In this document: positions 35,560-36,520 of the stretch, one piece after another | How positions within the stretch are numbered: position 1 is the stretch's first letter | How the letters are laid out: the number at the start of each line of letters is the position of its first letter | Notes under the pieces: model-generated | What the model was told of the DNA's origin: nothing | Database searches by the model: none | The model's input: only the letters and a program-made list of their open reading frames with translations | Assembly: GCA_964106645.2 (NCBI GenBank) | Contig: OZ067045.1 | Direction: 5' to 3' (one strand) | Length of the DNA stretch: 64,000 bases | DNA from: Podarcis pityusensis | Taxonomy: Eukaryota | Position numbers and translations under genes: made by a program

Positions 35560-36520
35560 ATGCATTTGGGCTGCTGCTCGCAGTAACCGTAACGTGAGCA
35601 TGCTAGTCTCCGGGAGTCACGGAGGAAGGTCTGCAGGCTGGGCTGCAACATTTCAAAACAAGCAAGCATGGGCTGCAAGATCAACGCCGTTGCAAAAGAC
35701 GTGCGAGCAGCTGGTCCGAGATGAACACGCGAGATAAGGAGAGCGCAGGAATTTTCCGACGCGCTTTCTTCCTTAGAGACACGGATGAGCGCAGGGAGAC
35801 ACGGATGAGAGAAGAGTGAGACACTTTCCAAGCTGCATGCATCTCTCTCTCTCTCCATTCCTCCTCCCTCTCTGACGCTGTAGCTTTTCCAGGGATCTCT
35901 GCCTTTTTCCTCCTCCCCGCCCTCCCTCCCCTCCCTCTCCTGTCTCTTCCTCGCTGGGCTTTGCCTGCCAGTCTGCTGAGCACCTTTCCTGCGCACCTTC
36001 CCGAGCCGCGAGCGCGCAAGCACCAGGCAAAAACAGGCTAGGCAAGGAGCCGCAGCCTAGCCAGGCAGCCCCCCAGGAGCCTCCCGGCCCCCCCTGCGCC
36101 TGATCCTACTTCTGCCACCAGCCGCACCCCGGACACGACCCCTGCGGGCCTGCCTGAGGGACTTCGCCCTCCCGGAGCTGCTACTTGCCGCCGCTGCAGT
36201 CTCGCCCGCCTGCCTGCCTCGCTCTCCCGGGAGCTGCCTCGGTGGAAGCGACGATGTCGGAGGTGCTGCCTTACAGCGAGGAGAAGATCGGGCCCTACGG
36301 GGACGGCGGCGAGGTGGGGCAGATCTCCTTCACCTGCCGCCTGCAGGACACCAACAACTTCTACGCGGGGGGGCAGACCAAGCGGCCCCCCAAGCTGGGG
36401 CAGATCGGCAGGAGCAAATGCGGTGAGCGCAGCGGGGCAGCGATGCGGGGCACATGCGGGGTAGACGCAGAGTAAAGGGGGAGCAGCAGGCGGGGGGAGG
36501 CTGTCGTTGGGCGCGCTTGG
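35560..36520 (+). promoter_or_regulatory. CAMK2N1 CpG island: promoter, pyrimidine-rich 5'UTR and exon 1
   Basis: CpG-dense; CRE half-sites (TGACG); long C/T tract at 35830-35960 upstream of ATG 36254. Confidence 0.7.

Follow-up and report, generated by a model that had tools for sequence, protein, structure and literature searches.

The window analysed here, a 64,000-nt stretch of Podarcis pityusensis DNA (assembly GCA_964106645.2, contig OZ067045.1), contains an intact two-exon CAMK2N1 gene on the plus strand, whose ATG lies at 36254 and whose product is 79 amino acids long once spliced. The coding part of exon 1 (36254–36422), carrying Met1 to Cys56 and the first base of Val57, lies in a CpG-rich island with a GC content of 0.66 and a CpG observed/expected ratio of 0.71, compared with 0.32 for the window. 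It is followed by a single phase-1 GT-AG intron (36423–39812, plus strand) and by the coding part of exon 2 (39813–39883, plus strand), which is preceded by a pyrimidine tract and AG, supplies the rest of Val57 through to Val79, reads on as VVIEDDR and ends with a TAA stop at 39881–39883. A candidate polyadenylation signal cluster spans 40097–40116 on the same strand, with a further AATAAA at 41350. G36422 is the first base of the split Val codon, and the donor beginning at 36423 is the sole GT between 36395 and 36449. A splice artefact at the TGC codon discussed below was considered and rejected: no alternative GT donor is present, and, its T being at −4, TGC could be replaced by CGC with the last three exon bases unchanged. 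Upstream of CAMK2N1, a GIDE and RING exon at 19422–20174 (plus strand) encodes a MUL1-like E3 ligase; if it is MUL1, the order and strand of the two genes would be those of the mammalian MUL1–CAMK2N1 arrangement. Minus-strand exons at 1557–13407, with a BTB domain (12553–13407) and several C2H2 zinc fingers, represent a ZBTB-family gene.

The identity of the gene, proposed in a first-pass annotation made from the DNA letters, was borne out. Exon 1 matched the Pfam CaM-KIIN profile (PF15170) with 104 bits (curated cut-off 27; E = 4.9e-30), and the spliced 79-residue product is fully identical to database protein P0124, which is filed under Lacerta and Podarcis. The inhibitory CN21 peptide is split between the exons: residues 1–14 (Lys43–Cys56; 36380–36422, plus strand) include L6 (structural register −5) and R11 (−3), and residues 15–21 end at 39832. 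L6, I9, G10, R11 and V15, which characterise the CaM-KIIN core, are all intact in the lizard CN19 core, and the residue at the phospho-acceptor position (P0), Cys56, is neither Ser nor Thr, as expected of a CaM-KIIN. Because CN position 12 is Ser (AGC at 36413), which marks the alpha paralogue, and a separate two-exon paralogue with the Ala12 of CAMK2N2 (beta) and Arg14 lies on another contig of the lizard genome (G000:C5), we assigned the gene in the window to the alpha paralogue, CAMK2N1. The lizard protein is 79% identical to its eutherian counterpart P0170, and its CN21 agrees with that of mammalian CAMK2N1 (CaM-KIIN alpha) at 20 of 21 positions, including Ser12. As with mammalian CAMK2N1, gene models in the database that continue into the intron part from the protein at the same place, right after residue 14. 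The one difference in CN21 concerns P0, which is Arg in mammals and other non-squamate orthologues but Cys in the lizard, where it is encoded by TGC at 36419–36421 (plus strand; Cys56, CN position 14). This codon, the starting observation of the first-pass annotation, was confirmed within the run of 14 codons from 36380 to 36421. The only other Cys of the protein is Cys28 in the FxCRLQDT motif (36335–36337, plus strand), which is invariant in all 39 sequences of our family alignment. A PDB sequence search with exon 1 gave no match; the co-crystallised peptide has 18 residues, below the 20-residue floor.

The role of position 14 is best described for mammals. Since Ozden et al. (bioRxiv 10.1101/2020.10.25.354241, PMC9336311) assign −2 to Ser and +1 and +2 to the two Val residues, residue 14 falls at position 0, and the register of the first-pass annotation, with R11 at −3 and residue 14 in place of the substrate Ser/Thr, agrees with the published structures, in which S12 is at −2 and V15 at +1. 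Coultrap and Bayer 2011 (PMC3184957) also put R11 at −3 and reported higher potency for P3A, K13A and R14A. No single mutant surpassed R14A and no double mutant surpassed P3A+R14A; combined with S12V, this pair gave ~20 nM versus ~100 nM. In the crystal structure, R14 makes contact with D156, and in the accessible text of the same paper Ala is the only substitution tried at position 14. Its Table 1 agrees with the first-pass annotation that the engineered peptide CN19o has Ala14. Other tight CaMKII binders whose peptides lie along the same groove also have a P0 residue other than Ser or Thr, namely Ala in Tiam1 and Ile in densin-180 (PMC9336311). These two proteins are unrelated to CaMKIIN and bind more weakly (Kd of 1.1 µM and 585 nM, respectively, versus 39 nM for CaMKIIN), and Tiam1 sustains CaMKII activity instead of blocking it.

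Residue 14 was read in 185 motif-bearing proteins retrieved by family searches and cluster look-ups, two of each, a set in which both paralogues are mixed and redundant gene models are included. All 29 squamate proteins assignable by name (27 genera) have Cys14. They cover geckos, skinks, a cordylid, a teiid, an amphisbaenian, lacertids, anguimorphs, iguanians, a boa, a python, vipers, elapids and colubroids, and are without dibamids, blind snakes, chameleons and night lizards. The remaining 156 proteins comprise 143 with Arg, nine with His, three with Cys and one garbled turtle model; the three extra Cys14 proteins are Logan sequences without a name that are similar to the squamate ones. Arg14 is present in the tuatara (P0129), the sister group of squamates, and also in turtles, alligators, ostrich, mammals, frog, lungfish and coelacanth. 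A profile search of 1.84 billion representatives listed 150 matches, 128 of which were new and 95 of which had a readable motif. Among these matches listed, position 14 of the 95 new representatives was Arg in 86, His in seven, Lys in one and Cys in one, the single Cys occurring together with a pit-viper-type N-terminus. His14 was found in teleost CAMK2N2 (P0068, P0088, P0160 and P0183–P0188) and in the seven representatives just mentioned, which are unnamed. In P0417, a divergent family member of 82 amino acids, P0 is Lys and the N-terminus is unrelated. Elsewhere in the protein, Tyr37 (36362–36364) is common to lizards and tuatara and is replaced by Phe in turtles, archosaurs and mammals; it is likely a lepidosaur marker.

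The first-pass annotation had treated Cys14 as a variant of this one lizard that could be fixed, polymorphic or erroneous. A one-lizard variant, a polymorphism and an error are all refuted by the fixation of Cys across all squamates sampled. Since independent assemblies share Cys14, chance or error is ruled out, and a sequencing error or a polymorphism private to the sequenced individual is scarcely credible: the independent records come from 27 genera, the whole lizard protein equals P0124, and a full-length Cys protein (P0137) is encoded on a 1,081-base Logan contig that is probably a spliced transcript.

The comparison of CAMK2N1 across squamates and other amniotes that the first-pass annotation had proposed was made on a 39-sequence alignment of 79 positions, with 26 squamate tips and 11 outgroups compared, and gave Cys in the squamates and Arg in the outgroups. 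Position 56 is the only one of the 79 columns in which a residue common to all 26 squamates is missing from every one of the 11 outgroups. Because it is the sole fixed difference between squamates and outgroups, we infer that Arg→Cys arose once, on the squamate stem; the change probably came about via a CpG transition and would then have been kept by purifying selection. Change counts, for which a species tree typed from recall was used, gave zero changes at position 56 within squamates, a group with a crown age of ~190 million years (PMC12629976). Variable regions of CAMK2N1 average 2.4–2.9 changes per site, and zero changes at such a site has a probability of p = 0.06–0.09; 36 of the 79 positions are invariant in the alignment. 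The absence of change at position 56 thus suggests constraint, short of proof. The binding determinants L6, I9, G10, R11, S12 and V15 also show zero changes, and 17 of the 19 CN19 positions are unchanged in squamates.

A CpG transition in the Arg codon could also have drifted to fixation on the squamate stem, leaving potency and regulation about as in mammals. On this account, which we consider doubtful, position 14 would add little to binding, CAMK2N2 would buffer the change, and Cys would persist since the one-step alternatives are worse, two of them being Ser, with which the inhibitor would become a substrate, and one a stop. It nevertheless has to be taken seriously, given that both Arg and His occur at position 14 of teleost CAMK2N2. 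This variation also counts against the tighter binding proposed below, as it means that the position tolerates change elsewhere. The teleost case resembles the squamate one as an independent loss of Arg14, but it concerns the other paralogue (Ala12), and Arg and His are mixed among fish instead of being fixed in a clade. An origin of the Cys14 codon from CGY by CpG transition is plausible. The products of such transitions are TGY (Cys) and CAY (His), and both outcomes are found in the family, His in the nine teleost CAMK2N2 proteins and the seven of 95 representatives described above. This observation and the CpG richness of exon 1 are consistent with drift, as is the lack of a co-evolved change in the kinase (see below), and one event alone cannot tell selection from drift. 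Drift sits less well with the Arg kept by all other vertebrate CAMK2N1 sampled, with the measurable effect of Arg loss on in vitro potency (PMC3184957) and with the absence of any reversion to Arg across the 27 genera. Furthermore, lizard CAMK2N2 encodes its retained Arg14 by CGA, a codon from which Cys is more than one step away.

The lizard genome has four CaMKII genes, whose recovered exons match mammalian alpha at the published contact residues E96, F98, E99, I101, V102, D135, K137, E139, D156, F173, G175, P177, G178, Y179, L185, I205, W214, Y222, Q224 and E236, in a comparison that is without the 92–112 exon (E96/E99) of the C9 gene and in which N-lobe exons before residue 73 lie mostly outside. 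All four genes share the P+1 loop sequence GFAGTPGY; apparent A174C/W differences were discarded as alignments running into introns. Three snake CaMKII alpha proteins and that of the tuatara agree over residues 129–231, save for E166D in the tuatara and P193A in all four. The groove residues being identical, a co-evolved change in the kinase is ruled out for the recovered exons, and it was therefore the inhibitor that changed and not the groove. In two of the CaMKII genes (G000:C15, L056/L057; G000:C9, L053), the exon for residues 113–137 is present in two alternative copies, one alpha-like and one divergent, which suggests mutually exclusive kinase-domain exons.

A further explanation, which takes up the redox or S-nitrosylation control suggested in the first-pass annotation, is that the thiol of Cys56 would be modified, adding bulk or charge at P0 and releasing the brake, with selection keeping a reactive thiol and not small size alone. 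We regard this as unlikely. Candidate modifications are S-nitrosylation, glutathionylation, acylation, a disulfide with Cys28 and slow S-phosphorylation by CaMKII itself. The change from Arg creates a two-Cys protein, with the invariant Cys28 as the second thiol, and every named squamate protein has Cys and no other small residue; Ala and Gly, however, are not one transition from the Arg codon, and Cys may just be the reachable small residue. The kinase itself offers no partner: among the contact residues recovered from the four lizard genes, we found no Cys in the groove or P+1 loop, and because none of the recovered groove residues is Cys, a disulfide from Cys56 to CaMKII appears unlikely. 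PKA, by comparison, carries Cys199 in its activation loop and is able to form disulfides with bound peptides; the equivalent residue in GFAGTPGY is Ala174. PKA and its inhibitors are a different kinase and a different family from CaMKII and CaMKIIN. A parallel between the two systems has been drawn by Pellicena and Schulman, who liken CaMKIIN binding to CaMKII to that of PKI on PKA (PMC3929941). PKI and the PKA regulatory-subunit pseudosubstrates share with CaMKIIN a substrate-like peptide in which the phospho-acceptor site is blocked. CN19 is unordered in solution (PMC3184957), so that in the free peptide Cys56, which comes after Arg-Ser-Lys, would be exposed and may be reactive, and a phosphomimetic Asp at P0 cut GluN2B binding about 5-fold, in line with release by a charged modification. 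In Pogona gonads switched by heat, CAMK2N1 is also upregulated alongside genes of stress and redox responses, which is a correlation only (PMC9034607). Conversely, the name CAMK2N1 was absent from the modification literature searched, and Cys phosphorylation is rarely reported outside phosphatases according to the accessible text of PMC12687438. Were the thiol modified, CAMK2N1 would act in lizards and snakes as a releasable brake that oxidative or NO signals lift while the Arg-type CAMK2N2 stays on, a scenario that we likewise find improbable.

The explanation we favour, at about even chances, is that squamate CAMK2N1 is an ordinary pseudosubstrate inhibitor whose small, Ser-like P0 residue likely makes it bind CaMKII more tightly than the Arg form does. 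For the binding mode we rely on work in mammals, in which the peptide occupies the substrate groove. R11 would sit on E96/E99, L6 would enter the pocket formed by F98, I101, V102 and I205, V15 would rest on the +1 patch, and residue 14 would point toward the catalytic site, where Arg contacts D156. Being small and Ser-like and seldom phosphorylated by kinases, Cys would behave like R14A. Lizard CAMK2N1 probably still acts as a pseudosubstrate blocker of activated CaMKII and is predicted to bind it somewhat more tightly than an Arg14 protein would. In that case squamates would have two brakes of unequal strength, CAMK2N1 with Cys and CAMK2N2 with Arg. Tighter binding is likely by analogy with the potency gain of R14A and with the Ala and Ile at P0 of Tiam1 and densin-180; the unchanged groove and the Arg kept by the lizard CAMK2N2, both read directly from the sequences like the distribution of Cys14 itself, argue in the same direction. 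The analogy is limited in that Cys differs from Ala and can be modified, and R14C lies outside the published mutagenesis in its accessible part. The suggestion in the first-pass annotation that the variant may bind CaMKII differently therefore acquires a direction from the mammalian R14A data, in which loss of Arg14 raised potency, while the effect of C14 in the lizard stays a prediction; both the gain in potency and the selection are what we infer.

The engineered peptides CN19a2 and CN19o (PMC3184957) share with squamates the replacement of Arg14 by a small uncharged residue. They differ in that this residue is Ala and not Cys, and squamates are without S12Q and V16D; moreover, the peptides are engineered, with potency measured, whereas the squamate form is natural and known here from sequence. 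CN19a2 combines the loss of R14 with P3A, a change also present in 10 of the 12 snake CAMK2N1 proteins, all 12 of which add G7A (P0096, P0148–P0152, P0154 and P0164–P0168). G7A probably lowers potency because the accessible text of PMC3184957 has just two neutral Ala changes, its table marking Q8 and V16. Net potency in snakes may thus be unchanged, i.e. rebalanced by G7A. The N-terminus of colubroid CAMK2N1 is shortened and divergent. Two Crotalus proteins (P0150 and P0151) are labelled CAMK2N2 in some databases; Ser12 and their likeness to other snake entries identify them as CAMK2N1.

We found neither a mention of the squamate Arg→Cys change in CAMK2N1 nor any biochemistry on the Cys form in the full-text literature searched, a body of text outside which most subscription journals and the supplements of comparative genomics papers lie. 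In their accessible parts, the Pogona gonad transcriptome study reports CAMK2N1 expression only (PMC9034607), and a structural-evolution preprint mentions CaMKIIN merely as absent from invertebrates (PMC12443042). Squamate sequences have been public for years, and the change may be tabulated somewhere unnoticed. As judged from the sequences, Cys14 is a genuine variant that defines the clade, in a known inhibitor and at a site whose function is known. Should the residue be no more than tolerated, it would be a footnote; if its thiol is modified in vivo, CaMKII would come under a new form of redox control, exerted via its inhibitor. Cys14 also provides a clean one-residue marker of Squamata. A whole vertebrate order is without the Arg whose removal gave the best single gain in potency, and most snakes sampled add P3A, which together would amount to a natural experiment on the permissible strength of the CaMKII brake.
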